Source of the DNA: an uncultured Verrucomicrobiota bacterium
GTDB taxonomy: Bacteria > Verrucomicrobiota > Kiritimatiellia > PWTM01
Assembly (NCBI GenBank): GCA_964610105.1
Contig: CAZSUU010000011.1
Coordinates: 21,394-85,393, forward strand
Direction: 5' to 3'
Length of the DNA: 64,000 nt
The position numbers and the translations under genes are program-made. Shown here piece by piece: positions 4,597 through 39,022 of this stretch; the stretch's first letter is position 1; the number at the start of each line of letters is the position of its first letter. The notes below the pieces were generated by a model. It did no database searches. It was not told the DNA's origin and saw only the letters and a program-made list of their open reading frames with translations.

Positions 4597-4604
4597 CGAC
4601 GGTC

Positions 4605-7465
<2,861 letters not shown>

Positions 7466-23549: not shown

Positions 23550-23726
23550 AAGGCGGCGAGCGGCAACCGAAAGGCCTTGGCCGTTCAAGGCACTCCCCTC
23601 CATGCCCTCCGTTCCTCCGTGCAACCGCGCCGCTTTCGGGGGTTGTTCGGCCGCCCTTCGCAACGGCGAACCCTCACGAGGAACATCATACGCATCTGGG
23701 TGTCATGTCGCGGCGGGACAATCTGA
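23550..23726 (+). repeat. copy B of the ~175-bp repeat family (degenerate hairpins)
   Basis: ~85% identical to copy A; inner hairpin degraded (catacgcatctgggtgtcatg). Confidence 0.75.
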
Positions 23727-24026
23727 TGGCCGGATCGAAGGTCCGCGCCGGGGACCGATGCGCACCCCGGTGCCACGACGCCGGATCTCGCAGCGGCGAC
23801 GTGGGACTCGATCTCGCGGACTCCACGGAACGAGCCGCGAGGTGCGTGTCGACGCCGGGCATCGGTGGTACAAGGAAACGAAGCACTGGCCAGGACCGGC
23901 GCTGGCCAGTATGCAGTCGAAGGTCAATGGCATGAACAAGATCGTCCGGACATGGCGATGGCTGGCCTTGGCGGCCGGTCTCGAGGGCGCGGATCCCGAT
24001 CCTCAACAGGGCGGCGTGTGGACCGC

Positions 24027-24404
24027 GAATGCGCCTTCAGCGTGAAGGACGACGGCAGGTGGGAGGTGAGACGCGGCTATTGGTTCTACAAGCAGGTGAC
24101 GCGCGCGGGACAGCCGGGGATGGCGGTGGCCCGCGCGAGCGCAATGGACTCGGAGATCGCCGTCCTCGCCTTCGCGCGCAACGGCACGCGGCATCCCGAT
24201 GCCTTCGTGCTCGCCAACCTCGGAAAGGACCGGAAGGTGCGGGTGCAGGTTCGGGGCGCGGCCGCGACGGCCTTCGCCGCCTTCCGCACGACCGAGGACG
24301 GGCGGGAGAAGTACGCCTCGGTCGGGAGATTCGACGTGCGGGACGGGGCCATCCTATGCCCCGCGGCGGGCGGGTCGGCGACCACGTTCCTGGCGGCGGA
24401 GTAA
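24027..24404 (+). pseudogene. C-terminal beta-sandwich remnant of a glycoside hydrolase (GH30-like C-terminal domain)
   Basis: ECAFSVKDDGRWEVRRGYWFYKQ...IAVLAFARNG...DAFVLANLG...TTFLAAE resembles a glycoside-hydrolase C-terminal beta-sandwich; no catalytic domain upstream, and the upstream reading frame is non-protein-like and abuts repeat copy B. Confidence 0.4.
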
Positions 24405-24407
24405 ACC

Positions 24408-25817
24408 ATGCGGATCGCGCATCGCAGCTTGTGGGCCGCGTTTCTGCCCGTCGCGTTTGTGGCGGCGGAGCGGCCGAACCTCATCCTGGTCACCGCCGAC
24501 GACATGGGGTTCCAGCTCGGCTGCTACGGGGACGCAGTGATGACGACGCCAAACATGGACCGGCTCGCGCGCGAGGGGCTCCGTTTCACTCGCGGCTACA
24601 TCACCCAGGCGTCGTGCAGCCCGTCGAGGAGCAGCATGCTCACGGGGCTCTACCCGCACCAGAACGGTCAGATCGGCCTGGCGCACCTGGGCTACTCGAT
24701 GCGACCGGACGTGCCGACGCTGCCCACCTTGCTGAAGAAAGCCGGCTACCGCACCGGCATCATCGGCAAGCTGCACGTGGCGCCGGAGAGCGCGTTTGAC
24801 TTCGACTACAAGGAAACCAACACGGCGGACACGCGCGACATGGCGAAGATTCGGGCGAAATGCGGGGCTTTCCTCGGCGGCGACGCGGCGAGACCGTACT
24901 TCCTCATGCTGAATTTCTTCGATCCCCACGACCCGCACATCCAGGACATCAACGGCAGCCCGAAGGCGAAGGTCGTCCCGGAGCAGGCGAAGGTCTATCC
25001 GTTCATGGGCACCAACTCGCCGGCGATCCGGCAACGGGTGGCGGAGTTCGCCACCTGTGTCAACCGCGTGGACGAGGGGGTGGGGGTGCTCCTGGACGTC
25101 CTGCGCGAGCGCGGTCTGCACACCAACACGGTCATCGTCGTGCTGGGCGACAACGGTCCGCCATTGCAGCGCGCGAAGGTGACCTCGTTCGAGCCGGGGG
25201 TAAACGTGCCGTTCATCGCCTGGGCGCCCGGCCGGATCGCGCCCCGCGTGGGCGACGAGATGGTGTGCTCCATCGACCTGCTGCCGACCTTCCTGGAACT
25301 GGCGGGCGCGGCGCCGCCGCCCGGTCTGCCCGGCCGCTCGCTGCTGTCACTATTCCGCGGCGCGCCGCCGCAGTGGCGAGAGTACCTGGCGACGGAGTAC
25401 ACGACCCACGAGCCCCGCAACCTGAATCCGCAGCGGAGCATTCGCGACAAGCACTACAAGCTCACCCTCACGCTACTCAAGGATCCCGCCTTCCAGTGGC
25501 CCGCGGGCATCGCGATCGCGGAGTACCGCAGGATCCAGCGCCGGGCCGCGACGGGCGAGTACATCGAGCTCTATGACGTGCGGACCGATCCGTATGAGTT
25601 CAGGAATCTCGCCGGCGCGCCGGAACACAAGGACGCGCAGGAACGTTTGCTTCGTGAGTTGAAACGATGGCGGGAGGAGACCCGCGATCCGCTGCTCGAC
25701 CCCGCCGCGCTGCAGGCGATGGTGCTGAAGGAGAAGGACGCCCCGCCCACGCCCGTGCCGGCGTGGAAGAGGGCGCGGGCGGCGGAGGCCGGGCGTGCGA
25801 AGGAGGCGGCAAAATGA
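24408..25817 (+). CDS. sulfatase (formylglycine-dependent arylsulfatase family)
   Basis: CSPSRSSMLTG (C-x-P-x-R), signal peptide, LILVTADDMG, GKLHV. Confidence 0.85.
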   Translation: MRIAHRSLWAAFLPVAFVAAERPNLILVTADDMGFQLGCYGDAVMTTPNMDRLAREGLRFTRGYITQASCSPSRSSMLTGLYPHQNGQIGLAHLGYSMRPDVPTLPTLLKKAGYRTGIIGKLHVAPESAFDFDYKETNTADTRDMAKIRAKCGAFLGGDAARPYFLMLNFFDPHDPHIQDINGSPKAKVVPEQAKVYPFMGTNSPAIRQRVAEFATCVNRVDEGVGVLLDVLRERGLHTNTVIVVLGDNGPPLQRAKVTSFEPGVNVPFIAWAPGRIAPRVGDEMVCSIDLLPTFLELAGAAPPPGLPGRSLLSLFRGAPPQWREYLATEYTTHEPRNLNPQRSIRDKHYKLTLTLLKDPAFQWPAGIAIAEYRRIQRRAATGEYIELYDVRTDPYEFRNLAGAPEHKDAQERLLRELKRWREETRDPLLDPAALQAMVLKEKDAPPTPVPAWKRARAAEAGRAKEAAK

Positions 25818-26300
25818 CACCTCCCGCGCTCGGATGCGCCGTCGGAGCAACGCTCGCATGGGCCGCCGCGCACGCCGTACGAGGAAAGCTGCGGCGTGCC
25901 GCTGCTTATCGCCGCGCCCGGCAAGGCCCACGGGACCGGCTGCCGGCGCGTCGTGGAATACGTGGACTTCTATCCGACGCTGGTGGATCTCTGCGGCCTG
26001 CCCGTGCGCGGCGACCTGGAAGGCCGCAGTCTGCGCCCGCTGATCGAGGATCTCGCCGCACCCTGGGACCATGCCGCGTTCAGCATCAACGCCCGCCATG
26101 ACCAGCCCGTCAATCTCGCCGTCAGCACCGACCGGTTCCGCTACATCGAATACGCCGACGCGAACAAGCCCGCCGAGTTGTATGACATCCAAGCCGACCC
26201 GCGCGAGTGGACGAATCTCGCCGGCGAAGCCAGGCATGCCGAGGCGCTGGCGGCGATGCGAAAGCTGGCGGCGGAACACCGACGGGAGTTCTGGAGGTAG
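25818..26300 (+). pseudogene. C-terminal fragment of a second sulfatase, in frame directly after the upstream sulfatase stop
   Basis: TPYEESCGVPLLIAAPGK...DFYPTLVDLCGLP...DPREWTNLA are sulfatase C-terminal motifs; no N-terminal/catalytic part. Confidence 0.55.
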
Positions 26301-26349
26301 GCCAGCAGCGCGCGGATGACAGGCCGCCCCTTCTCCACGCCCAGTCGAC

Positions 26350-26449
26350 CCCGGCGGTGGACGGCGCGCCGCGCTGGGAGATCCTCCCGACCACCGGCGG
26401 CTGGACCCTGCTGCGGGACGGCCGGCCGTTGTGCATGCACGGCGCGCGC
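26350..26449 (+). pseudogene. duplicated 5' fragment (~100 bp, ~85% id) of the M14-like gene at 28088-28188
   Basis: Encodes GAPRWEILPTTGGWTLLRDGRPLCMHGA vs GAPRWEINSTADGWRLLRDGTPSCIHGA; similarity ends exactly at the 3' end of the minus-strand ATPase gene. Confidence 0.5.
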
Positions 26450-26451
26450 GA

Positions 26452-27675
26452 TCAATCCAGCCATGTCCAGCCGGGGATGATGCGGACGGACCGGCCCTGC
26501 TCGACAAGTGTGTCGTCCTGGTCGAGAGTGATGACCCGCATCTCGCGGGCCTTGCCCTTCGCCGCACCGGGAAGCGCGGCGGCTTGCAGAAGGCCGCGCA
26601 GCTCCCGCCCGCGGTTCTCAGGCGTGAGGCGCGCGCAGCATTGGATGGCATGGGTGGCCGTGACGAAGTCGCACTCCCATTCGTGAGGCGCGGCGGCGAA
26701 GGCCGGGGCCGCTCCGGCGCGGCACAGGGCGAGCAGCACGGCGTTCTCCAGCGTGCGACCGAGGTCGGGGGTCGGGTTGGGGCTGTTGGCGGCGGCGAGG
26801 CCGGTGTCCACCGCGTAGTACTTGGGCGGGCTGGTGACACGCTGCTTGAACGATGCGCTGAACCGCGGCACCGCCAGCATCAGCCACGCATCCTGCAGAT
26901 ACCCGACCATGCGCCCGGTCTGTGCGACGGAGGGCAGGCCGAGACCCTTGGACAACGCCTGCAAGGACAGCGGCTGCCCCGTATGGGCGAGCAAGTGAAG
27001 CGCGAGGGTCATGAGCGGCCTCGCGGTGCGCAGGGAGTGCCGGGTCACGATGTCGCGGTGCACCACGTCCCTCAGCAACTCGCGCAGGAGCGTGCCGCCT
27101 TGCTGCGGGCCGGCGCGCAACGCGGCGGCGAATCCGCCCCGCATCAGATAATCCTCCAGCGCGGCGGCGCCCGCCTTCCGTCCGGTGAACTCGAGATACT
27201 CCTGAAACGAGAACGGATAGACCACGTGCGAGAGGTGGCGGCCCGTGAGTTTCGGTCCCATCTCCCGGCCGAGCAGGCTGGCGTTGGAGCCGGTGAGACA
27301 AACGCGGCGCCCGGCATCGAGCAGCGCGCGCACGAGCCGCTGCCATTCCGGCACTTCCTGCACTTCGTCGAGATACACCGCCGCCTTGGGGTGCCTGGCG
27401 TCCAGCACCGAGAGAAGCGTGGGGAAGTCCTCGGGCCCCATGCCGTAGAGGCGTGTGTCCTCGAGGTTGATGGTGACCGACGCGCCCTGGAGGCCGCGCC
27501 GCACCTGTCCTTGAAGGGTGCTCTTGCCGCAATGACGGACGCCCGCGAGCGCCAGCGCGTGCGAGGCCATCGCCGGTTTCCAACCGGGTTGGAAATGCCG
27601 GATCACCTCGTCCTCCACGCCGGGGGGTTCCGCGGGGTTGGACAGGACGATTTCCAGTGTTTCACGTAATAGCAT
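26452..27675 (-). CDS. AAA+ ATPase (AAA_14/DUF4143-type)
   Basis: P-loop GVRHCGKSTL, Walker-B VYLDEVQ, C-terminal DUF4143-like region. Confidence 0.7.
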   Translation of the reverse strand: MLLRETLEIVLSNPAEPPGVEDEVIRHFQPGWKPAMASHALALAGVRHCGKSTLQGQVRRGLQGASVTINLEDTRLYGMGPEDFPTLLSVLDARHPKAAVYLDEVQEVPEWQRLVRALLDAGRRVCLTGSNASLLGREMGPKLTGRHLSHVVYPFSFQEYLEFTGRKAGAAALEDYLMRGGFAAALRAGPQQGGTLLRELLRDVVHRDIVTRHSLRTARPLMTLALHLLAHTGQPLSLQALSKGLGLPSVAQTGRMVGYLQDAWLMLAVPRFSASFKQRVTSPPKYYAVDTGLAAANSPNPTPDLGRTLENAVLLALCRAGAAPAFAAAPHEWECDFVTATHAIQCCARLTPENRGRELRGLLQAAALPGAAKGKAREMRVITLDQDDTLVEQGRSVRIIPGWTWLD

Positions 27676-27689
27676 GCCGTTGTGCTATC
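27676..27689 (+). promoter_or_regulatory. 14-bp motif gccgttgtgctatc shared with 17677-17690 (candidate promoter element)
   Basis: 13/14 identity with gccattgtgctatc upstream of the sigma-factor gene; both lie in local low-GC intergenic DNA. Confidence 0.25.
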
Positions 27690-28040
27690 TCATGAAACAG
27701 CCGTGTGCAACTGTAGTGAACAGAAGTTTGACCCACGGTGGCCGGGCACGGAGTGCTCGCTGTCGGCGCGAGTCATGGTCGACGGGTTCCCGGGCGACCG
27801 CCGGTCGTGGGTGGGGCGCGGCGGATGGCGTCGCATCCACGGAAGCGCGTATTGCGGCGGGGGCCGTGGTGGGGCAGGATACCGGGCATGAGCCGACCGT
27901 TGCGATTGCCGGCGAAGGGCGGGCGGGATCACGGGACCGCCCGGGGAACGGGTGGAGGGCGCGCGGGCGCCGGGATGGAAGCTGCGTGCGCTTCACGGAG
28001 TGGTCGAGGCCTTTCGGCCTCCGCGTTCTGGAGACGGACC

Positions 28041-29657
28041 ATGATGCGCCCGTTTGAAGTGCTGACGATCCTCCTCGCCCTGGCGGCCCCGGCGGTCCAG
28101 GGCGCGCCGCGCTGGGAGATCAACTCGACCGCGGATGGCTGGCGACTGCTTCGCGACGGCACGCCTTCCTGCATCCACGGCGCGCACATCCCGTGGTACG
28201 AACGGCTCGACGCCCTCGGGCTCCGGACGGGGAACGACGACGCGGCCTTCCGGCCCGGCGCGACCGGCGCCCGCGTCTTCATGCGGTTCTTCGAGGTCGA
28301 GGGCGAGCCGGTCATCGACGACAATGGCACGCCGTCCGGCACGCCCGCCCGGCACGGCTTTTCGACGAACCACCGGTGCGACGACGTCCTGCGCGGCGTC
28401 GTCTGCACGCCCCCGCGCATCGCGATCCCGCCGACCTGCGAAGGCTATCCGGACGTCGACACGTATCGCGACCTGGAGTGCTGCCTGCTGGCCGGGGAAC
28501 CGGACGTCCGCCTCGACGCGGACTTCCCGGGCGGCAACGTGCGGGTGGTCGAGCGTGCGGGCGATACGTTCGTCGTGGCGCCGGACCTTCGCGACACGAA
28601 GGGCTGGTGGTTCCATTTCAACTTCCGCCTGTGCGCCCCGCCGGGGCGGACGGCGACGGTGGTCTTCGCCGAGCGGAATCCGATCGGTGCGCGCGGACCG
28701 GCGGCGAGCATAGACGGCGGGCGCACCTGGACGTGGATGGGCCGCGAAGCGGTGAGGAAGGGCGCGCGCGGCGGCAAGCCGGCGTGGTCGTTCGCGGCGG
28801 CGGTGCCGGAGGGCGCCGCGGAGGCGCGGTTCGCCTTCGCGCCGGTCTACCTGGAGACGCACTTCCGCGAATGGCTCGATGCCCACCGGACGAACGCCGC
28901 CCTGCGCGTGACCGAGCTCTGCCGCAGCCGCGGGGGCCGCCCGGTGGAACGGGTGAGGGCCGGGCGCCTGGACGGGGGGGCGAGGGGCAAGGTGCTGTTG
29001 ACCGCCCGGCACCACGCGTGCGAGTCGATGGCCAGTTACGCGCTGGAGGGATTCCTCGACGCCGTGCTCGCGGACGACGAAACGGGGCGGCGCTGGCGCG
29101 AGCGATGGGAGGTCGTCGCCATGCCCTTCGCCGACAAGGACGGCGTGGAGGCGGGCGACCAGGGCAAGAACCGCGATCCCCACGACCACAACCGCGACTA
29201 CAACGCGACGCCGCTCTACCCGGAGATCGCCGCCTGGATGAAGCTCGGCGAATCGGCGAAGGATACCGTGGTGTTCAGCCTCGACCTGCATTGCCCTTAC
29301 ATCGACGGGAAGTGGAACGATCGCGTGTACATCGTCGGATCGGAGAGACCGGACCATGCCGCGGAAGAGAAGGCCTTCGCGGCCGTGCTCGAGCGCGAGC
29401 GACGCGGGCCGCTGCCGTTCCGCGCGGCCGAATGCTATCTGCCGGCGGGCGAGGCGTGGAACAAGCCCGGGAACTACGCGGCGGGCCGTTCGAACGGAGC
29501 GTGGGCGAGGGACACGTTCTCCGGCGCGCGCCTCGCGGGCGCGATGGAGATCGCCTATGCCGACGCCCAGGGCGTGGAGGTGAACGCGGCGTCCGCGCGC
29601 GCGTTGGGCCGCGACCTCGCGTCCGCCGCGCTGGCGTACCTGGGGGATTCGCCATGA
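28041..29657 (+). CDS. secreted M14-like zinc carboxypeptidase family protein (putative)
   Basis: Signal peptide MMRPFEVLTILLALAAPAVQG; HxxE (ARHHACESM) and downstream His (SLDLHCPY) spaced as in M14 peptidases; DHNRDYN. Confidence 0.5.
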   Translation: MMRPFEVLTILLALAAPAVQGAPRWEINSTADGWRLLRDGTPSCIHGAHIPWYERLDALGLRTGNDDAAFRPGATGARVFMRFFEVEGEPVIDDNGTPSGTPARHGFSTNHRCDDVLRGVVCTPPRIAIPPTCEGYPDVDTYRDLECCLLAGEPDVRLDADFPGGNVRVVERAGDTFVVAPDLRDTKGWWFHFNFRLCAPPGRTATVVFAERNPIGARGPAASIDGGRTWTWMGREAVRKGARGGKPAWSFAAAVPEGAAEARFAFAPVYLETHFREWLDAHRTNAALRVTELCRSRGGRPVERVRAGRLDGGARGKVLLTARHHACESMASYALEGFLDAVLADDETGRRWRERWEVVAMPFADKDGVEAGDQGKNRDPHDHNRDYNATPLYPEIAAWMKLGESAKDTVVFSLDLHCPYIDGKWNDRVYIVGSERPDHAAEEKAFAAVLERERRGPLPFRAAECYLPAGEAWNKPGNYAAGRSNGAWARDTFSGARLAGAMEIAYADAQGVEVNAASARALGRDLASAALAYLGDSP

Positions 29658-29811
29658 ACGACCCGTTCGCATGCGGCGGCTACCATACCGAGGCCGCTGC
29701 CAGGCCCTTCCGCGCCGGGGTCGGCGCGGCCCCATCGGAACGACGCTGGAGCATGGGGACGCGGCGCCCTCACCGCGTTCCGAGGCGTAACGACATGAGA
29801 AGGAGTCCCCG

Positions 29812-31158
29812 ATGATGAACGCCCTGACCCGCCGGTCTTTCCTCCGGCGCTCGACGCTGGTCACCCTGTTCGCAACCGGCGCGGCGCGCAGCCGCGCCGC
29901 GGAGGCCGACCGCGACGACGAGATCCTGGCGCAATGCCCGTCTCGCATCCGCGAGCACCGCATGGGCGACGGAGTGATCTCGGTCAAGACCGCGGACGGG
30001 AAACCGGTTGCCGGCGCGCGCGTGCGGCTGGCGCAGACCCGGCACGAGTTCCTGTTCGGGTGCAACTTCTTCAACTTCGGCAAGCTCGACGACGCCCGAC
30101 TGCAGGAGGCGTACAACGAGCGTTTCGCGGCCTTGCTGAACTTCGCGACGCTGCCGTTCTACTGGCCGATGTACGAACGGGCGCGCCGACAGCCGGCCTA
30201 TGAGGATTCACAGAAAGCCGCCGAGTGGTGCAAAGGCCGCGGGATCGCCTGCAAGGGCCACCCGTTGGTGTGGGATTTCGCCGATCCCCCGTGGTTGCCG
30301 CGCGAATTCGAGGAGATCCGGCGCCTTTCCCACGCGCGGGTCAAGGACTGCATCACCCGTTTCGGCGGGCTGATCGACCGGTGGGACGTGGTGAACGAAC
30401 CGACGCATCTGGGGCGGTTCGGCACGCGGATGGGGGAGTGGGCGCAGTCGCTCGGCCCCGTGCCCTACGTGCGCCAGCATCTCGACACCGCGCGGGCGGC
30501 CGGTCCCAAGGCCACGCTGCTCGTCAACGACTATCGCGTCGATCCGCCCTTCTACCGTATCCTCGACCAGCTCCGCGACGGCGACCGGCTGCTTTTCGAC
30601 GTCGTCGGCATCCAGAGCCACATGCACCGGGATGTCTGGCCGATGGTGAGGGTGTGGAAGGTCTGCGACGAGTACGCGCGGCTGGGGAAGCCCATCCACT
30701 TCACCGAAACCACCGTCGTGAGCGGTCCCTTCCTCGGGCGCGACGAGACGAGGGCGGGGCGGGGCGGCGACAACGAACGATGGGGCGAGACCACTCCGGA
30801 GCTCGAGGACAAACAGGCGGAGCAGGTGGTCCGCTTCTACACCGCGCTCTTCGCGCATCCCGCGGTGGAGGCGATCACCTGGTGGGACTTCTCCGATGCG
30901 CGCGCGTGGAAGCGGGCCGCGGCGGGCCTGGTCCGCAAGGATATGTCGCCCAAGCCGGTCTACGAGCGACTGATGGCTCTCGTCAAGAAGGAGTGGTGGT
31001 CGACGTTCGAGGGGATCACCGACGAGCGGGGGCAGCTTCGCGCGCGGCTCTTCCATGGCGAGTACGAGGCGGCGATCGCGTTGCCCGACGGGTCCGCGTC
31101 GCGGAAGACCTTCGCGTGGCCCCGCCGCGCCGAGCGAAACCCCGTGGTGGTCGTGTGA
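29812..31158 (+). CDS. TAT-secreted GH10-like (clan GH-A) glycoside hydrolase
   Basis: TRRSFLRRS TAT motif; WDVVNEPTHL (acid/base) and IHFTETTV (nucleophile-like) in GH10-like spacing. Confidence 0.55.
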   Translation: MMNALTRRSFLRRSTLVTLFATGAARSRAAEADRDDEILAQCPSRIREHRMGDGVISVKTADGKPVAGARVRLAQTRHEFLFGCNFFNFGKLDDARLQEAYNERFAALLNFATLPFYWPMYERARRQPAYEDSQKAAEWCKGRGIACKGHPLVWDFADPPWLPREFEEIRRLSHARVKDCITRFGGLIDRWDVVNEPTHLGRFGTRMGEWAQSLGPVPYVRQHLDTARAAGPKATLLVNDYRVDPPFYRILDQLRDGDRLLFDVVGIQSHMHRDVWPMVRVWKVCDEYARLGKPIHFTETTVVSGPFLGRDETRAGRGGDNERWGETTPELEDKQAEQVVRFYTALFAHPAVEAITWWDFSDARAWKRAAAGLVRKDMSPKPVYERLMALVKKEWWSTFEGITDERGQLRARLFHGEYEAAIALPDGSASRKTFAWPRRAERNPVVVV

Positions 31159-31514
31159 GCCGCAGAGAAGCGGAGAGAAGTCCATGGGTGTGAATCATGT
31201 ATGCGCGATCGTCTCGCTGGCCCTGGCCGTCTCGGCGTCGGCCGGTCCGTTCCCGCCGCTCCGATCGCCCCTCGACACCAACGACGCCGCACGGGGGCGT
31301 TCAGGCACCTCCGACCGGGAGCGTCAATGAAGGACATCCCCAAGGCGTCAAGCCGCGACCCCATGGTCCTGGTCGCTCCACGCTCTCACTCCATTCCTTC
31401 CCTTCCCTCGTGCGATGGCGCCGCCTTTTCATTGCGTCTCCCGTGGAAGTGGGCTATCGCTTTGGTGCGTTTCATGCACGTGACCGAGATCTCCTTTGCG
31501 GGTTTGGGAAGAGG

Positions 31515-32672
31515 ATGACCGCGCCCCTCGATCCGAGGGCGGCGGGCCGCCGCGTTGCTCTTGTCGCCGCCACGCTGGCGGTGGCAGGGGCCGGGCTTTG
31601 CGCCGAGGCTGATCCTCGACCCTCACTTCGCGAGGCGGCCGGCGAGCGTTTCGCGATCGGCGTCGGCGTGAGCGACCGCATCCCGGAACGTCCGGAGGAT
31701 TGGCCGTTGCTCACGACCCAGTTCAACAGCGTGACACCGGAGAACTGCCTCAAGCCCGATCCGGTTCAGGCGGCGGAAGGACAGTTCAACTTCTCGCGCG
31801 GGGACGCGTTTGTTGACTTCGCCGCGTCGAACCGCCTGGACATCGTCGGCCACTGCCTGGTCTGGGCCAAGGATGATCGAACCCCACCCTGGTTCTTTCG
31901 CGACGGCACGAACACCGCCGGCCGCGAAGTCCTTCTCCGGCGGATGAAGACGCACATCGAGACGGTGGCCGGGCGCTATCGCGGGCGGATCGCCATGTGG
32001 GACGTGGTCAATGAGGCGCTGGACGACGGCACCAACTTCCTCCGCCCTTCGGGTTGGAGCGCGGCGTGCGGCGAGGAGTTCATCGTCAAGGCTTTCGAGT
32101 ATGCGCACGCCGTGGACCCGCGGGCACTGCTCATCTACAACGATTACAACAATGAGCTGCCCGACAAGCGCCCCAAGCTGATCCGGCTCGTGCGCGCGCT
32201 GCGCGAGAAGGGCGCGCCGATTCACGCGGTCGGCCTGCAGGGGCACTATGAAATCGACCGGCTGCCGTTGGCGGACATCGAAGCCACGCTCGTCGCCCTG
32301 CGCGAGATGAACGTGAAGGTGGTGTTCTCCGAGCTGGATATCGACGTCATCCCCCGCTCCCGCTGGTGGGCGGATGGCGGCCGGCATCGCGGCGAACTCG
32401 CGCAGCTCGACCCCTACCGCGACGGCTGCCCGCCGGAGGTTCTGCAACGGCAGGCCGAGTTGTACGCGCGGCTCTTCCGCCTTCTTGGCCGGCACGCGGA
32501 TGTCATCGCTCGCGTCACCTTCTGGAACCTGCACGACGGCCAGAGCTGGCTGAACGACTTTCCCTGGAGGCGGGTGAATCACCCGCTGCTGTTCGATCGT
32601 CTGGGAGAGCCGAAGCCCGCGTTCGAGGCGGTGATCGAGGCGCTGCTGGAAGGACCTGCGCCGCCGCGGTAG
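31515..32672 (+). CDS. GH10 endo-1,4-beta-xylanase
   Basis: TPENCLKP, WDVVNEAL, FSELDIDV, TFWNLHD classic GH10 motifs; signal peptide MTAPLDPRAAGRRVALVAATLAVAGA. Confidence 0.8.
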   Translation: MTAPLDPRAAGRRVALVAATLAVAGAGLCAEADPRPSLREAAGERFAIGVGVSDRIPERPEDWPLLTTQFNSVTPENCLKPDPVQAAEGQFNFSRGDAFVDFAASNRLDIVGHCLVWAKDDRTPPWFFRDGTNTAGREVLLRRMKTHIETVAGRYRGRIAMWDVVNEALDDGTNFLRPSGWSAACGEEFIVKAFEYAHAVDPRALLIYNDYNNELPDKRPKLIRLVRALREKGAPIHAVGLQGHYEIDRLPLADIEATLVALREMNVKVVFSELDIDVIPRSRWWADGGRHRGELAQLDPYRDGCPPEVLQRQAELYARLFRLLGRHADVIARVTFWNLHDGQSWLNDFPWRRVNHPLLFDRLGEPKPAFEAVIEALLEGPAPPR

Positions 32673-33067
32673 CAGGGGGGCGGAATCCGCCGATGGACAC
32701 CCGATGGGTATGATGGGGACAGGCACTCTGCCCCTGCCGGAGCGGATCTTCAGCGGCGCTGAAAGTAGTAGATGACGCCCTGCCGGCCACCGAGGGTGTA
32801 TCCAAGCAACACATCCAGTTTCCGCAAAGCAACGTTATCCAGCGACTCTTCGATCCGAGGCAGCACGTCTGCCATCTTCTTCTTCACGGCAGTTTCCCTT
32901 CGACATGAAGTTTCTCGGTGGCGCCGTTATGAAAGCGGGCCTTGATTGTGCCGTCCGCCCCCCCCGAGCCAAGCGTTCATGCCGTAGGCGGCAATCGGTC
33001 CGCCGATTTGCCGGAGAGTCCCCGGGCGGGAGCGCGGCCCGGGGATAGGGCTACAAGGCTCGATCAG

Positions 33068-36000
33068 TCAATTCTTGTCTCTGAGCAGCCGGATGCCGAA
33101 GCCCGATGGTTTTACGTGATGGCTGTCACCCAGGTATCTGGACCAGTTGTGGACACTGCTCAGCCATCCCCTATCTGAAGATTGAGGTGTGGAGCTCCAC
33201 ATGTAGCAGCTTCCCGTCAAATTGTGAAAGCTTCCATCGCACCAGCGGGCGCCGTTGGGGAGGCAGTTGAAACCGGTCTTGTTGTTCAATTCCGGACGCT
33301 CGCTGATGAGCAATTCCTTTTCCCAGACATTTCCTGATTTATCTGTGATCCGGTACTGCCAGCCAATTCTTCCCGCCACCGATTTGCCGAGCTTGTTTTC
33401 CTTTTCCTTTTCTTGATTGTAGTCGCCCTTCCATTCGGGGTATTGGGTTCCGTCAAAGTTATATCCATTGCGTACCAGGTACCGGCGAAAGGCCAGTTGT
33501 TCCTCAACCGAGGGCACATGCCAGCCTTTGGGCGCAATCCTCGGATGGCTGGCGGCCCACCAGTTGTACAGCAATCCGTTCTTTCCATTTTCGGGTTTGT
33601 TTTCGTTGTAGCACCATGCCGGGGACGAAAGAGCTTGCCATTCCTTGTCGTCAGTGACATTGGGAATGGGCGTGCCGTCGCTGTACTTGGTGGTTTTGAG
33701 ACCTGTGGTGGTCCACACGAAGTCGCCGATCTTCACCGTCTGGTAGACATTCCCGTCGGCATCCGTGACGGTACCCGCGCAGTCGATCATCTCGATGGCG
33801 ATTTCGCCGGTGTCCTGACCGGGCACATGGATCTGATAGTCAAGATAGCCCTCTTTGGTGACCGTGATCACATCCCTGCGATAGTCAATGTAGCCCTTGT
33901 CGGTGACCGTCTGGGCTACCGGCGCAAGACCGACCAGAACCATGCTGAAATTCCCGTTTGCATCCGTCGTCGTGGATTGGCCGGTGCTTTCCACCTTCAC
34001 ACAGGCTCCAGCCAGGCCGGCCCCGGATGAGTCCTTCACTGTTCCGCGGATGCTTGAGGCCTGCGCAGATTCATCCGCGTCACGCAGCAGCCGGATGCAG
34101 AACCCCGATCGGTCGTGATGCTGGTTGTTGCCGTATTTGGCGAACCGGCTGTGAATGCTGCTCATGTGCGAGCCTTCACCCTCACCCTTGGTCGTGCTCC
34201 ACCAGTAAACGCTCTTGCCCATCGCATGGAAACTTCCGTCGTTCCAGCGGCTGCCGGCAGGCAGCGCCGTAAAACCGGCGCGGTTGTTGTTGGTCAGGTC
34301 GTGGCCGGCGTTGCCAGGAGTCGGATCGGAATCCCAGTCGGTCTTGGCCGTCATCGCTTTGGCGACCTTGTTGCCTTCTTTGGTTCCGTCGTGGTTGTAT
34401 CCGTTGGCAATCAGGTAGTCCCGCAGCGCCATTTGTTCCTCATGCGTCGGCACCTTCCACCGCTTGGGAGCGATTCTGTCGGAACTGGCGGCCCACCAGT
34501 TATAGAGTGCTCCGTATTTCTCTCCATTGGCGGGTCTATTTTCGTAATAGCAGAAGCCCGGACTGGCCAGCGCTTTCCATTCGGCGTCACCGGTCACATG
34601 AGGAATCGGCGTGCCGTCATTGTATTTTGTTGTCCTGAGGTTTTCGACGGTCCACACCTGATTGCCAATCTTCACTGTGTGATAGATGTTCCCATCGGCA
34701 TCCTGCACGGTTTCCGCAGAGGTGGCGCGACCGGTTGCGTCCGGGTCCTCCGCAGCGAGGTTGAGCGTCGTTGCGTTGAAGAACTCGATGCACTGGGCGA
34801 GTTTGGGCGTGGATTCAAACCAGTCGTGCGAGTATTCCAGACCGATCATCGTGGGCTTGATGCCCTGGCGGTGCAGCTCGCGGAAGAACTCCTCGGATTT
34901 GCCAATGCCCGTTCCCCACGGCACGTCGTGGCCGTTGCGGCCCGGTTCGTGCAGGTCGTGCATCTGCACGGTGATCACGCGGTCCCTCAGCACGCGCACG
35001 GCGTCGATCGGATCGATGCCCGAGCGCAGCCAGTAACCGAGGTCGGGTGCGGCGCCGATCCGCTTGCTCCGGCCCTCGCAAGCTTTGAGCACACCTTCGG
35101 GACGCCAGTAAAGCGGGGAGATGTCCTTGCCGTGATTGTGAATGGCCACGTTGATGCCGTATTCGTTTGCGAATGTGTCGAGCAGATCGAGGTGCTCCGG
35201 TTTGGGCTCACAGATGAAGGTTTCGAAGCCCATCTTGCGTCCGAACTCAAATAGCCTGCGACACCCGGCGTCGTCCGTGGGAATGTCCTGCGCGTAGTAG
35301 GTCAGCATCCGCACGCCGCCGGATTCCATTTTGAACCGGATCTGGCGCAACTCGTCGTCCGTGAGGTTCTGATCGAAGTTCTTCGGGATGTCCTTGCTGA
35401 CCGGCTGCAGGAAGCTCAGTCCGCCGATGTAAGGCAGGCCAAGCTCGGCGGTCTTCTCGATGGTCTCAAAGAAGGTGAACTTGTGAAACGTGTAGGCCTC
35501 CACGCCGAGCCTCCAACCAAGCTTCTCCTGCGCGAGGATGGCCGGCGAGAGCTTGGCGCTCGGTGTGGTGGGCGCAGGCAGGTCGCCGAGAACGAACTGG
35601 GACGCGTCGAGGTAGAACTGGAGCATCTTCGGATTCCAGAAGACCTGCGGGTTGTGCCCCATCGTTGCGTAGAAAACCCGCCCGCGGCCGTAGGTGCGCA
35701 CCCAGGCGAGCGCATAGTCCTTGTCCGGCCGCAGGACGGGATCGCCCGGCTTGATGCCCGACAGATCGGTCTTCACCGTATCCATGCTCAGCAGCACGCG
35801 AACGCGCTGGCGGGAGTAGGGTTCGTGAAATCGGAAGAACTCCTCGGTCATCTCGAAACCCTCGCCGGCAAACGCCCGGTTGAGGGGATGATCCGCGTCG
35901 TCAATCTTGATCCAGGCCCGTTCGTTGGCGTCTCGGTGAAATGCGCCGCGCGTCCCGATCATGTGACCGAACTCCGGCCAATCTTCAACCGGCGGCCATT

Positions 36001-36430
36001 GCCAGTTCATGAAGGCGATGGACGTTCCATGGACGCCCATGAGTCCTCCCCCGCCGGTGACGAACTCCAGGAGATTCCGCCGCAGGTCGGCGTTGGTGAA
36101 GCAATTGCCGATGGTGTTGTTGAGGAACACGGCGTCGAATTCGCGGAGCGCTTCGCGCTGGAAGACGGCCGGATCCGCGCTGACCGTGGCGCTAAACGCC
36201 CCCGTTCTCTCCCCCATCCGGGTGAAGGCTTCGTTGGCGTGCGCGATGGACTTATGCCCGCCATAGCCCACGTTGCGCGTGAAGATCAGCAGGCGGCGCG
36301 GCCGGGCGGGCTGGACGGTCGCCTTCTCCGGCACGGCGTGTTCGATGAGTTCGCGCTCCGCGGCGTCTTGGACCAAGGGCGCCGCCGCGTTCGCCGGCGG
36401 GCTGAGCATCGTCGCAAGGGCCAGGATCAT
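33068..36430 (-). CDS. multidomain fusion: ThuA-like domain + xylose-isomerase-like TIM barrel + CarbopepD_reg-like + two FISUMP (Fibrobacter succinogenes major paralogous, TIGR02145-like) domains
   Basis: ThuA (LLIFTRNVGYGGHKS, GGGLMGVHGTSIAF), TIM barrel (LGVEAYTFHKF, GFETFICEP, INVAIHNHG), two FISUMP repeats (DADGNIYHTVKIGNQVWTVENL..YNDGTPI..GALYNWWAA..GFCIRLLRD; DADGNVYQTVKIGDFVWTTTGL..GLLYNWWAA..GFGIRLLRD). The 3' third of the gene is ~47-55% GC vs ~68% elsewhere. Start MILALATMLSPPANA signal, residue 23 of ORF 33068..36496. Confidence 0.8.
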   Translation of the reverse strand: MILALATMLSPPANAAAPLVQDAAERELIEHAVPEKATVQPARPRRLLIFTRNVGYGGHKSIAHANEAFTRMGERTGAFSATVSADPAVFQREALREFDAVFLNNTIGNCFTNADLRRNLLEFVTGGGGLMGVHGTSIAFMNWQWPPVEDWPEFGHMIGTRGAFHRDANERAWIKIDDADHPLNRAFAGEGFEMTEEFFRFHEPYSRQRVRVLLSMDTVKTDLSGIKPGDPVLRPDKDYALAWVRTYGRGRVFYATMGHNPQVFWNPKMLQFYLDASQFVLGDLPAPTTPSAKLSPAILAQEKLGWRLGVEAYTFHKFTFFETIEKTAELGLPYIGGLSFLQPVSKDIPKNFDQNLTDDELRQIRFKMESGGVRMLTYYAQDIPTDDAGCRRLFEFGRKMGFETFICEPKPEHLDLLDTFANEYGINVAIHNHGKDISPLYWRPEGVLKACEGRSKRIGAAPDLGYWLRSGIDPIDAVRVLRDRVITVQMHDLHEPGRNGHDVPWGTGIGKSEEFFRELHRQGIKPTMIGLEYSHDWFESTPKLAQCIEFFNATTLNLAAEDPDATGRATSAETVQDADGNIYHTVKIGNQVWTVENLRTTKYNDGTPIPHVTGDAEWKALASPGFCYYENRPANGEKYGALYNWWAASSDRIAPKRWKVPTHEEQMALRDYLIANGYNHDGTKEGNKVAKAMTAKTDWDSDPTPGNAGHDLTNNNRAGFTALPAGSRWNDGSFHAMGKSVYWWSTTKGEGEGSHMSSIHSRFAKYGNNQHHDRSGFCIRLLRDADESAQASSIRGTVKDSSGAGLAGACVKVESTGQSTTTDANGNFSMVLVGLAPVAQTVTDKGYIDYRRDVITVTKEGYLDYQIHVPGQDTGEIAIEMIDCAGTVTDADGNVYQTVKIGDFVWTTTGLKTTKYSDGTPIPNVTDDKEWQALSSPAWCYNENKPENGKNGLLYNWWAASHPRIAPKGWHVPSVEEQLAFRRYLVRNGYNFDGTQYPEWKGDYNQEKEKENKLGKSVAGRIGWQYRITDKSGNVWEKELLISERPELNNKTGFNCLPNGARWCDGSFHNLTGSCYMWSSTPQSSDRGWLSSVHNWSRYLGDSHHVKPSGFGIRLLRDKN

Positions 36431-36514
36431 CCTATCCCACGATGGTCTCCGGCGATGGCTCCGGGGGTCCGCGTGTCGTTCGTTCATGTCGCGCATGTGT
36501 TTCTCCTTCGCGTG

Positions 36515-39022
36515 CTACCGCGGCCGGAAGCGGTATGTGTGCCCCGCGACTGCCGCGAACACCAGGCATTCTCCGTTCGTGCTGTCGGCTCGAACCGCCA
36601 CGGGATCGGAGCTTCGGGTCTCGCGTACCACGACCTCGCGGCCCGGCCAGGGATTCATGATGCGGCAGACGTGGTCCCGCCGCGGCCGCACTTCGAGGAA
36701 ATAGACTCCTTGGGCATTCCTCGCGGCGGAAACGAGGAAGCCGCCGCGGGCCTGGAAGTTGTGGAATGCCATTTCGGTGTCGGGCGGGACCGCCGGAAAC
36801 AGGTGCATTCGCCCGCTGCGGCTGTTGAGCAGGGCTTCGGCGTCGAAGCCGTCCCACTTCGACTGAGCAGGGACGCCCAAGAGGATCAGTGTTTGCGGCG
36901 TGGTTCCCGCTGATTCCAGCTTCCGCGCCGTGCGGAGCATCATCTCCCTCTGCTCCTTCGGGGAATCCAGATTGACTTCGTCGGCCAGGATCGTCAGGTA
37001 CTCCACCGCCTCGCCAAAGTGATCGCCGGGAACATTCTTCGGCTCCACGCCTTGGATCGCGCAATACACCGGCCCGTCGGCAGTTTCCAAGGTAGGATAG
37101 GGGGCCAGGTGGTCGGCGACTTCGCGCCACCTGCCGCGCAGGTCCGCATCCACGCCGAGAATCTCCGACGCCTCGGCCGTACGGCTCAACGCCCAGCGGA
37201 ACATGCACAGCGAGCTGATCACGTCCTTGTTGCGCGCGAATTCCGCGTAATAGCCCCACTTCTCTGGCTCCATGGATGGGATGATGTGGTAGCAGCCGTC
37301 GTCACCCTTCTTCGCGTAGGCCGCGTAGAAGAGGGCCATCTCGCGCATGAGCGGGTAGCACTCCTTGCGCAGGAACTCGATGTCGCCGCCGTAGTCCCAC
37401 TCGTCCCAGACCGGCTTGACGGTCTGGGCCATCGTATCGAGGCACAATTCGAGCGTGAGGGTCGTGTGAACGTACTTGTCTGGCTTGATCGGCGGCTGGT
37501 AGCCGTGGACCAGGCACATGCCGGGCATGCCGAACATGTTCTTCGCGTTGTCCCGCGCGCCCGGCCGCCAGTGCCACACGAGTTGCTTCCACATGTCCTG
37601 GTGGTCGGCCCAGTTGCGGACGAAGTACTTGCTGGTGAAGATCTCGTTGTAGCACGGAGCGCTGCTCCAGAGCTGCGCGTCCCGCTCCGGTGGCACGTAG
37701 GAGGCGCTGCACTCGTACTGGCGCATGTCGGTCTTGGTGCCGCCGCCATGCCCGTCGGCGCAGCTGCGGTAGATGCTCAGAATATCCTCCGTGCACTGCG
37801 TGCCGGTCACACCTTTGAACACGCGACCATTCTCCCGCTTGTCATAGAACGCATTCCACCACGCGGTGTTCTCCCTGACCACGCCGTCGAAGCCGGCGGC
37901 CTCGGCGGCGGCCAGGCGCTCCCTGGCCAGGGCAATCACGTCCGTGCCGTCCATTGTCGTGACAATGGTGACCAACGCCTCCAGCTTCCCGTCGCCCGCC
38001 GGCGTGAAGGTCGCCGTAGCGGCGGCGCCCGGCGCCGCGGCAATGTGTTTGTCCGGCGGCGGCGTGCCAAGCCCCGTCTCGCCTTCCACCGTCTTCACGT
38101 CCACTTGGCCCGGCGTGATGACCACGCCCATCAGCACGTATTCGAAGCCCTGCGGGAACGTCTTCTCCGGTGGCATCTGCTGGCGAATCCAGAAATACCG
38201 CCCGTCCTTGCCGCTGGTCGGCGGATCCATCGGATAGTTGAACGCGTGGTCCGCTTCGGTTCCTTTCTTCGTGTACGTCTTGCCGTCTTCGCTCATGTAT
38301 CTCAGGTGGGCCGTGTCGCGGTGACGATAGAGCCGCAGCCAGAGCGGGGTGTGAATGCCTGAGAACTTGCCGCGGACGGCGTAGAGGTTACTCGTCATCC
38401 CCAGCACGTATTCCAAGCTGGCCTTGGCGTCGCCCTTGGTCACCTGCAGTCTGGTCACGCCATTGGCGCAGCTCTGGGTGGCGTCCGGCGCGGCGGCGCC
38501 GGCCAGCGGGTCCATTCCCACGATAATCTGGCCGACGGGTTTCAGACACGGCATCGAGTATTCGATGGGTTGCCGATAGGGATCGTAAAAGCCGCCTTCC
38601 TTGCGCAGGTAGCCGTACCCCCGGGGACGCTGGCAATCGTGGGCCTTGCCTTCAAAACCCTTGTTGGCCGGGGAGAAAGCGCCGTCCGTGATCTCCTGCA
38701 AGGTCGGGGCGGTCAGACCCCGCGAGTTGACCCGCCGGTCCCAGACGTTGTTCTTGGTCAGGCTGATGGTGATCCGGTCCGGCGGCCCCCAGAGCGTGGT
38801 GCGCATCTTGAGGCTGCAAATGGTCATCGCGCTGCCATGGGGATAGCTGTTCCAGTTCGGCTGGGGATCCCCGGGCTCGAGCCTGTTTCCGAAGGAGACG
38901 GATTGGGCCGCCTCTCGCAGCGGGATTTCCCGCTCCCACGGAAGCGGTTGGGCCGCCAAGGCCGAAAGTGAAATCCCGAGGAGCAGGATTGCCGGGAACG
39001 CCAGTTCGTTGGGGCGTTTCAT
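36515..39022 (-). CDS. secreted GH95/DUF5703-like (six-hairpin) glycoside-hydrolase-family protein, paralog 1
   Basis: Signal peptide MKRPNELAFPAILLLGISLSALAA; shares LTKNxxWD and six-hairpin-like C-terminal region with 53651..55966; family assignment tentative. Confidence 0.65.
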   Translation of the reverse strand: MKRPNELAFPAILLLGISLSALAAQPLPWEREIPLREAAQSVSFGNRLEPGDPQPNWNSYPHGSAMTICSLKMRTTLWGPPDRITISLTKNNVWDRRVNSRGLTAPTLQEITDGAFSPANKGFEGKAHDCQRPRGYGYLRKEGGFYDPYRQPIEYSMPCLKPVGQIIVGMDPLAGAAAPDATQSCANGVTRLQVTKGDAKASLEYVLGMTSNLYAVRGKFSGIHTPLWLRLYRHRDTAHLRYMSEDGKTYTKKGTEADHAFNYPMDPPTSGKDGRYFWIRQQMPPEKTFPQGFEYVLMGVVITPGQVDVKTVEGETGLGTPPPDKHIAAAPGAAATATFTPAGDGKLEALVTIVTTMDGTDVIALARERLAAAEAAGFDGVVRENTAWWNAFYDKRENGRVFKGVTGTQCTEDILSIYRSCADGHGGGTKTDMRQYECSASYVPPERDAQLWSSAPCYNEIFTSKYFVRNWADHQDMWKQLVWHWRPGARDNAKNMFGMPGMCLVHGYQPPIKPDKYVHTTLTLELCLDTMAQTVKPVWDEWDYGGDIEFLRKECYPLMREMALFYAAYAKKGDDGCYHIIPSMEPEKWGYYAEFARNKDVISSLCMFRWALSRTAEASEILGVDADLRGRWREVADHLAPYPTLETADGPVYCAIQGVEPKNVPGDHFGEAVEYLTILADEVNLDSPKEQREMMLRTARKLESAGTTPQTLILLGVPAQSKWDGFDAEALLNSRSGRMHLFPAVPPDTEMAFHNFQARGGFLVSAARNAQGVYFLEVRPRRDHVCRIMNPWPGREVVVRETRSSDPVAVRADSTNGECLVFAAVAGHTYRFRPR

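Follow-up and report, generated by a model that had tools for sequence, protein, structure and literature searches.

A probable multi-event scar, with an inserted PDC-S01-type ATPase gene, in a sulfated-glycan degradation cluster of a Verrucomicrobia-like bacterium

How did the ends of several genes come to be packed around an opposite-strand ATPase gene, between an intact sulfatase gene and the gene of an M14-like peptidase? We address this question for a 64-kb stretch of DNA (the window, meaning the whole of the sequence analyzed; GC content 67%), in which the pieces concerned lie between positions 24408 and 29657. The initial annotation, made from the window sequence alone, proposed that a sulfatase-M14 gene pair was duplicated in tandem and then suffered an internal deletion, took up the ATPase segment, or both. 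Comparison with relatives (loci and contigs designated below by L-numbers) supports two elements of that proposal, namely that the pieces are gene remnants and that the ATPase segment was inserted and has a duplicated stretch at its borders. The history we arrive at is a different one. The region is, in our assessment, probably a multi-event scar within a sulfated-glycan degradation cluster of a Verrucomicrobia-like bacterium, left by a single large deletion, the insertion of an ATPase gene that is a candidate for phage defence and several collapses that kept the reading frame. At the left end of the region, the following features can be distinguished:

24408-25817, plus strand: sulf1, an intact S1-type sulfatase of 469 amino acids (aa; Pfam Sulfatase, E 7e-49, plus SGSH_C)
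25814-25867, plus strand: probable 5' stub of a deleted gene A, ~18 codons, signal-peptide-like, with an ATGA overlap with the sulf1 stop codon
25868-26300, plus strand: sulf2 remnant, corresponding to ~residues 335-476, or the C-terminal third, of another sulfatase paralogue (SGSH_C, E 9e-21)

As initially annotated, sulf1 is intact. It matches PF00884 over positions 1-301 of 301, as expected of an S1 formylglycine-type sulfatase, its C-x-P-x-R motif reads CSPSR in translation, and its orthologues are 74-81% identical, with the L156 protein at 81% aa identity. Downstream of the sulf1 TGA, the same frame remains free of stop codons for 160 codons, and only sulfatase C-terminal domains match there; the sulfatase C-terminus already noted in this frame is readily recovered (25818-26300 against SGSH_C positions 9-150 of 154). 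This second sequence matches SGSH_C and Sulfatase_C and lacks the catalytic domain of S1 sulfatases, and it is a pseudogene fragment, not an enzyme. A recent tandem copy of sulf1 was considered as its source and rejected, since the remnant is 27% identical to sulf1 over 180 aligned positions versus 76-80% (aa) to the sulf2 orthologues of L071, L073 and L156. The remnant is thus a different paralogue, contrary to what duplication of the sulfatase-M14 pair would require.

Intact arrangements in relatives indicate what the window has lost. In the closest relative, L156, whose tetranucleotide composition is nearer to that of the window than is that of any other locus tested (r = 0.98), first a 657-aa He_PIG/CBM9 gene and then one of 536 aa lie between the sulf1 orthologue and a sulf2 orthologue that is intact (476 aa), full-length and separate from sulf1; in L073, the sulf2 orthologue runs uninterrupted over the truncation point. 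Homology of the remnant to its orthologues begins at ~25868-25872 (residues 335-476 of the L156 protein are 80% identical to window 25872-26297), and neither of the two intervening L156 genes was found in the window. Because sulf2 lies intact two genes downstream of the sulf1 orthologue in L156, we read the window as having lost ~4.5 kb, from about codon 18 of gene A through all of gene B to about codon 334 of sulf2. Such a deletion, rather than a pair duplication, explains the missing 5' part of the remnant. The 50-nucleotide (nt) linker between the sulf1 stop and the start of sulf2 homology opens with an ATGA start/stop overlap and encodes MTPPALGCAVGATLAWAAAHA; the 657-aa gene of L156 starts at the equivalent overlap position (GTGA) with a similar signal peptide. 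The linker is therefore the probable stub of gene A, with DNA similarity to the L156 gene that is weak. Stub and remnant lie in different frames, so that the remnant could be translated only from an internal GTG at 25896, without a catalytic domain. Compared with L071 and L073, the remnant has a ratio of nonsynonymous to synonymous substitution (dN/dS) of 0.19 and the shortest of the three branches, with no long branch, which indicates that sulf2 was under purifying selection until recently.

The remnant resembles pseudogene remnants of sulfatase clusters in Verrucomicrobiota and Planctomycetota in being a truncated sulfatase without a catalytic domain that adjoins an intact paralogue, and in that sulf2 has been damaged independently in relatives. 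The sulf2 of L071 carries a single in-frame TAG (7962-7964), upstream of which the frame continues; that of L155 (7257-7727) has an internal deletion of ~residues 65-343, or ~280 codons; and in L072 and L154 the pieces are split between reading frames. The window remnant differs in showing no neutral decay yet and in happening to be in frame with the gene that precedes it. As a separate observation, the independent damage to sulf2 in several genomes makes this neighborhood seem to be one of repeated decay.

To the right of the sulf2 remnant, a direct repeat flanks the ATPase segment:

26288-26449, plus strand: repeat copy 1 (c1), the end of sulf2 and the decayed 5' end of a GH2_C-like gene, X (aligned with c2 and with X of L071)
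28025-28187, plus strand: repeat copy 2 (c2), made up of 9 nt from the end of sulf2, intergenic bases and an intact X 5' end that keeps its ATG and signal peptide

This repeat had been described as a ~100-bp copy, at ~85% identity, of the 5' end of the M14-like gene. A repeat is present (26333-26447 versus 28071-28185; blastn E 4e-21 within the window), with copies spaced 1738 nt apart that are 78% identical over 115 nt and 64% identical over 39 aa; with one 1-nt gap it extends to 26288-26449 versus 28025-28187, where 118 of 160 positions (74%) agree. The earlier estimate of identity was thus too high. The reported coincidence with the 3' end of the ATPase gene holds to within a few nucleotides, c1 stopping 2-4 nt before the complement of the stop codon (26452-26454). 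The source was misassigned: the repeated sequence belongs to X, not to the M14-like gene. In L071, X (428 aa, with a weak match to the TIM barrel Glyco_hydro_2_C) starts 4 nt past the sulf2 stop codon and is present as a single uninterrupted copy, whose first ~50 codons match c2 (62% aa) and c1 (46% aa). In L155, X adjoins the damaged sulf2. Both window copies include GTTCTGGAG, the last codons of sulf2, whose stop codon is mutated in c2, and they share an identical 21-nt core, GGCGCGCCGCGCTGGGAGATC. The position of c1 is syntenic, following sulf2 as X does in L071, and the uninterrupted sulf2-X arrangement of L071 serves as the "empty site". In all, only ~160 nt of X and its border with sulf2 were duplicated; beyond c1 and c2 the window contains no other part of X, and we found in it no additional copies of X, of sulf2, of the ATPase gene or of Y, a second gene whose fragments are described below.

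The two copies have fared differently. A 1-nt deletion has removed the ATG of c1 and its signal peptide is destroyed, with a hydrophobicity maximum of 0.36 versus 2.45 in c2. Over the same stretch, DNA identity to X of L071 is 75% for c2 and 62% for c1, and in the triplet of c1, c2 and L071, c1 forms a long branch (~19.5%; c2, 6.5%). On either side of the 21-nt core, c2 is closer than c1 to L071, and no mosaic pattern is seen. Codon-position counts in the c1/c2 comparison are too small to tell neutral from constrained divergence.

Between the two copies lies the insert, with the following parts:

26452-27675, minus strand: intact AAA_14 + DUF4143 ATPase gene, 407 aa (Pfam; PADLOC PDC-S01)
27676-27738, minus strand: conserved 5' leader and promoter-like element of the cassette (motif in 18 aligned upstream regions)
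27739-28024, no strand assigned: spacer of ~286 nt between the cassette and c2, with a hairpin, GAGGCCTTTCGGCCTC, at 28007-28022

The opposite-strand AAA/DUF4143 ATPase of the initial annotation is borne out by Pfam matches to AAA_14 (E 7.7e-27) and DUF4143 (E 6.8e-12), and its Walker A motif reads GVRHCGKST in translation. Residues 38-406 also match profile PDLC04787, used to assign PDC-S01, over positions 27-406 of 412 (E 2.6e-76). PDC-S01 is a very common, unvalidated single-gene candidate that transfers between the bacterial and archaeal domains (PMC12988326), and DUF4143 is listed in the PD-(D/E)XK superfamily (PMC3424549). In its full-length profile match and AAA_14 + DUF4143 architecture, the window gene is a typical member of PADLOC PDC-S01 (COG1373), and its occurrence as a single gene with patchy distribution in unrelated contexts is that expected of a frequently transferred gene. 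It differs in lying inside a glycan-degradation cluster, where it interrupts a gene; its neighbors in the window are sulfatases, GH10 genes and the M14-like gene, and do not form a defence island. A role in defence is a candidate function at the level of the family.

A metagenome scan provided 80 loci with relatives of this ATPase. Full-length relatives are 67-91% identical and have unrelated flanks, with neighbors that include peptidase S9, gcvP, glucoamylase, sulfatases and, in L078 only, toxin-antitoxin-like genes; the host contigs vary in GC content between 57 and 69%. At the DNA level, they share with the window only 26451/2 through 27722-27738, a stretch bounded by the stop codon and a point ~50-60 nt before the start; the sequence 3' of the stop codon varies between contexts. 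The best ATPase relatives are 88-91% identical (aa), compared with ~80% for the best relatives of the flanking genes. From these unrelated contexts, the confined homology and the closer relationship of the ATPases, we conclude that the gene was acquired as a promoter-plus-open reading frame (ORF) unit of ~1.29 kb and inserted into X. A motif, TGTTCACTACAGTTGCACAC-N3-TGTTTC-N7-GATAGC, located ~10-50 nt upstream of the ATG in PDC-S01 relatives (67-91%; L074-L151), is promoter- or operator-like in sequence and marks the 5' boundary of the shared cassette. As an aside, a second AAA_14/DUF4143 paralogue, 27-28% identical, lies within a few kb in three of the loci (L085 2043-2849, minus strand; L125 9150-10286; L140 290-1507).

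The remainder of the insert offers few clues to its origin. The spacer has a GC content of 74%, no codon-position periodicity in any frame, no Rfam match and no match to the sigma-70 consensus; promoter, terminator and Rfam scans of 25.5-28.6 kb gave nothing above chance, the sole hit, CRISPR-DR33 at E 0.16, falling well below threshold. The ATPase gene is the only domain-bearing ORF in 26450-28024, where no transposase or integrase was found, and no inverted repeat joins the two ends of the insert. Without a transposase or terminal inverted repeats, and with a flanking repeat of ~160 nt at 74% identity, the insert does not qualify as a transposable, insertion sequence (IS) or integrative element. 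It resembles duplicated-target insertions, such as those with transposon target-site duplications or Campbell-type repeats, in that direct repeats derived from the interrupted gene enclose its ~1.58 kb. It differs from them in its repeats, which are ~160 nt long and 26% diverged rather than 2-14 nt and identical, and in its content, a single promoter-plus-ORF unit and a spacer, with neither transposase, integrase nor terminal inverted repeat.

The M14-like gene itself, taken initially to be the intact version of a duplicated gene 1.7 kb downstream, is instead an in-frame chimera that begins within c2:

28041-29657, plus strand: chimeric 538-aa ORF in a single frame (X + Y + Y + M14-like core)
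28041-28205, plus strand: X N-terminus, aa 1 to ~55 of the chimera
28206-28421, plus strand: middle fragment of Y
28416-28502, plus strand: C-terminal fragment of Y
~28491-29657, plus strand: M14-like core

Across 65 genome loci with M14-like relatives, essentially all match the window ORF only from residue ~145-158 to 538. The few loci with longer alignments (starting at residues 103-139) were considered and set aside, as the two inspected (L017 and L013) proved spurious, one of them crossing a stop codon. M14 orthologues in L001, L002, L003, L005 and L006 have their own Sec/Tat signal peptide directly before (V/I)DADYPGGN and do not match residues 1-150 of the window ORF, which depart from this native architecture and consist of X and Y sequence. 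This further contradicts duplication of a sulfatase-M14 pair. The N-terminus of the chimera is matched by X of L071, and residues 56-127 and 128-150 are matched by a family of hypothetical proteins, Y, that end in PTCEGYPDVDTYRDLEFY; relative to Y proteins, the window has lost ~120 internal residues as well as the last few codons and the stop. The core, of the zinc carboxypeptidase-like M14 type, scores 26.0 bits against PF00246 (cut-off 21.6; partial, positions 4-130 of 286), and its HxxE zinc motif, HHACE, is conserved with L001. It is the core of a conserved clade provided with a borrowed leader. The closest orthologues among the 65 loci, L001-L003, share no neighbors with the window.

The chimera's architecture is absent from all proteins in a search of 5.8 billion sequences, and the identical 538-aa product was called independently as a gene on two contigs, L067 and L068. 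X, both pieces of Y and the M14 core share one frame, for which the chance is ~1/27 if the three junctions are independent. The shared frame and the gene call are suggestive of selection for a secreted M14-like protein, although they are not proof of it. The locus appears to be a candidate natural signal-peptide swap, in which a secreted M14-like enzyme may have been rescued by the leader of a destroyed neighbor. Like other fusion genes formed by in-frame deletion, it has the N-terminus and signal peptide of one gene leading the catalytic core of another, with junctions in frame; it differs from them in having three junctions and ~130 aa of debris from two unrelated genes before the core.

The comparisons made here establish what each piece is, where the cassette ends, how the genes are arranged when intact in relatives and that independent assemblies agree; the order of events given next is proposed. 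The ancestral order would have been sulf1, gene A, gene B, sulf2, X (GH2_C-like), then Y and the M14-like gene at some remove, followed by GH10. In an older event, a PDC-S01-type cassette of ~1.29 kb would have arrived with ~286 nt of non-coding DNA and entered the 5' part of X, ~150 nt into the gene (cassette and spacer, 26450-28024), with ~160 nt of target duplicated on both sides, comprising the last 9 nt of sulf2, intergenic bases and ~147 nt of X; on this account, insertion and duplication would be a single event. The c1 copy, left without function, would then have decayed through the 1-nt deletion of its ATG and destruction of its signal peptide, and c2 would have kept its start codon and signal peptide. 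The c1 branch (~0.2 substitutions per site) is about as long as the window branch of sulf2 measured at synonymous sites (~0.25), which indicates that the insertion is old. At some point, three in-frame deletions would have eliminated the remainder of X, the greater part of Y and the start of the M14-like gene, to yield one 538-aa ORF whose M14-like core is led by the X signal peptide. Most recently, a ~4.5-kb deletion that starts at about codon 18 of gene A and ends ~334 codons into sulf2 would have taken all of gene B with it, bringing the C-terminal third of sulf2 to a position immediately behind sulf1.

Several points weigh against this reconstruction. No close strain with an empty site was found, and the ancestral order is pieced together from two relatives, its sulf1-to-sulf2 half from L156 and its sulf2-X half from L071; L156 lacks X, Y and the M14-like gene. 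Adjacency of X, Y and M14 occurs in no relative, the only hint being a C-terminal Y fragment that directly follows sulf2 in L072 (2826-3155). When c1 and c2 are compared with X of L071 and X of L155, the result is a star, with informative sites divided 4:4:4, so that their origin by duplication within this lineage is presumptive, and the 26% divergence between the copies implies an event of some age. A target duplication of 160 nt is the signature of no standard transposition mechanism. The spacer has no nucleotide or credible translated match among the fetched loci. Finally, expression and function of the chimera are suppositions.

Could the junctions simply be artefacts of assembly? Each junction recurs in Logan contigs that come from five separate runs and match the window at 100% identity:

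L066: window 23608-26002, 100% identity
L067: window 25973-37675, 100% identity
L068: window 25973-31605, 100% identity
L069: window 25973-28510, 100% identity
L070: window 25973-28210, 100% identity

Because these are independent contigs from five runs, we conclude that the junctions are not assembly chimeras. What might still suggest chimeric joins, or a mis-annotation in which 25896-26300 is a genuine independent small protein, is that every Logan contig over the region (5 runs) breaks at the same 30-mer, 25973-26002, and that many database homologues of the remnant, the closest of which are 65-80% identical, are listed as proteins of just 105-235 aa. However, the 30-mer encodes a conserved sulfatase motif, PTLVDLCGLP, and is identical at 29 of 30 positions in the L073 orthologue. 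The shared break indicates a branch in the assembly graph, for which a co-occurring orthologue is the likely cause and a sufficient explanation, with a population variant as the alternative. The short entries that were examined are split or cut pieces of full sulfatases, and not an independent conserved small protein. Artefact or mis-annotation can therefore be given next to no credence. Two contigs end close to the X|Y and Y|M14 junctions (at 28210 and 28510, respectively); these ends were considered as traces of parental sequence and discounted, as other samples assemble straight through.

The remaining alternatives accept the pieces and dispute how they were joined. An old segmental (tandem) duplication could have produced two full sulf2-X pairs, of which c1 and c2 are the diverged 5' ends of X, with the cassette entering the first X and later deletions clearing the interval from the cassette to within 9 nt of the end of the second sulf2. 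We regard this as unlikely, while acknowledging that it would account for a c1-c2 divergence (26%) equal to that between c2 and its L071 orthologue, for the star obtained in the four-taxon test and for the sulfatase end of 9 nt retained by c2, in a cluster that is prone to deletion. It calls for more events (duplication, insertion and at least two extra deletions), one of the deletions having to end just 9 nt before a stop codon; two sulf2-X pairs occur in no relative, and the spacer to the left of c2 has neither coding periodicity nor sulfatase homology. Somewhat more doubtful still is that foreign DNA was integrated with the help of homology, by Campbell-type single crossover or homology-facilitated illegitimate recombination, from a fragment or circle of a related species in which a diverged 5' end of X accompanied the ATPase and spacer and which recombined with the resident X, the copies having diverged before they were joined. 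Imperfect direct repeats around an insert are the classical outcome of a single crossover, the 21-nt core common to c1 and c2 fits such an event, and the ATPase has closer relatives than the flanking genes do, in hosts of different GC content. Yet the copies form no mosaic, c2 being nearer to L071 on both sides of the core; X, sulf2 or M14 adjoins the cassette in 0 of the 80 related ATPase loci; and the decay of c1, with loss of its ATG and signal peptide, would still have to follow. The tandem sulfatase-M14 duplication proposed at the outset is highly improbable. The order of the remnants, a sulfatase 3' end and then the 5' end of the next ORF, does mimic a truncated gene pair, and L023 has an M14-like gene that directly follows a sulfatase, but the remnant is the orthologue of a distinct gene, at 27% identity to the upstream sulfatase, and the repeated 5' piece comes from X. 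We thus retain the insertion of a cassette into X, followed by in-frame collapses and a recent deletion.

Whether PDC-S01 genes, coding for putative ATPase-nucleases, are themselves autonomously mobile "promoter + ORF" cassettes, whose insertion creates or exploits direct repeats of the target without a transposase or integrase, is a broader question. A hint in this direction comes from relatives whose surroundings are unrelated, since their homology stops exactly at the stop codon on one side and ~50 nt before the start on the other. Direct repeats bracket PDC-S01 loci in the window, L078, L084, L085 and L124/L135/L143, and were found in 1 of 52 control loci. They are heterogeneous, and abut the ends of the cassette in the window only. 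We consider self-mobility very unlikely.

The bracketing repeats of other loci are described here for their own sake. The repeats of L078 (1-165 and 2403-2567; 165 nt at 96%) and L084 (5-880 and 4389-5009; 124-320 nt at 75-95%) flank close relatives of the ATPase and are partial copies of neighboring small genes (CopG/RHH-like in L078), away from the cassette ends. In addition, near-identical terminator-like hairpins, for example AAGAGAGCATCCGTGGTGGGTGCTCTCTT followed by a T run, bracket both distant and close PDC-S01 genes, one copy lying 43-55 nt after the stop codon and the other 100-820 nt upstream of the start:

L124: hairpin pair at 5137-5183 and 7222-7269
L135: hairpin pair at 5557-5596 and 7307-7347
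L143: hairpin pair at 5380-5422 and 7249-7291
L085: hairpin pair at 5855-5902 and 7270-7317

Upstream of sulf1, one more feature deserves mention:

24018-24404, plus strand: adjoining sulf1 on its upstream side, possibly what remains of the C-terminus of a GH30-like glycosidase (weak evidence)

The ORF at this position is coding-like over its last 128 codons only, with a GC content at third codon positions of 0.91 from 24018, compared with 0.51 over 23865-24017. A comparison of 24018-24404 with PDB gave one weak match (E 0.16), to residues 334-430 of the GH30 xylanase 9ywn_A, in its C-terminal domain, and Pfam gave none; a 52-aa stretch of the ORF resembles an uncalled region of L159 (14183-14332). 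This segment may be a third truncated gene of the cluster. In L156, a Y1_Tnp (IS200/IS605-type transposase) gene lies at 3905-4684, ~5 kb upstream of the sulf1 orthologue.

In sum, nothing at this locus goes beyond ordinary genome flux, and it holds no new kind of system; what sets it apart is the unusual detail in which that flux is resolved. It provides a worked example of seeming "tandem remnants" that, on comparison with relatives, turn out to be the products of ordinary events in a dated series. For PDC-S01, the nucleotide-level boundaries of a cassette, together with an uninterrupted orthologous site in L071, are useful for understanding how such genes move.

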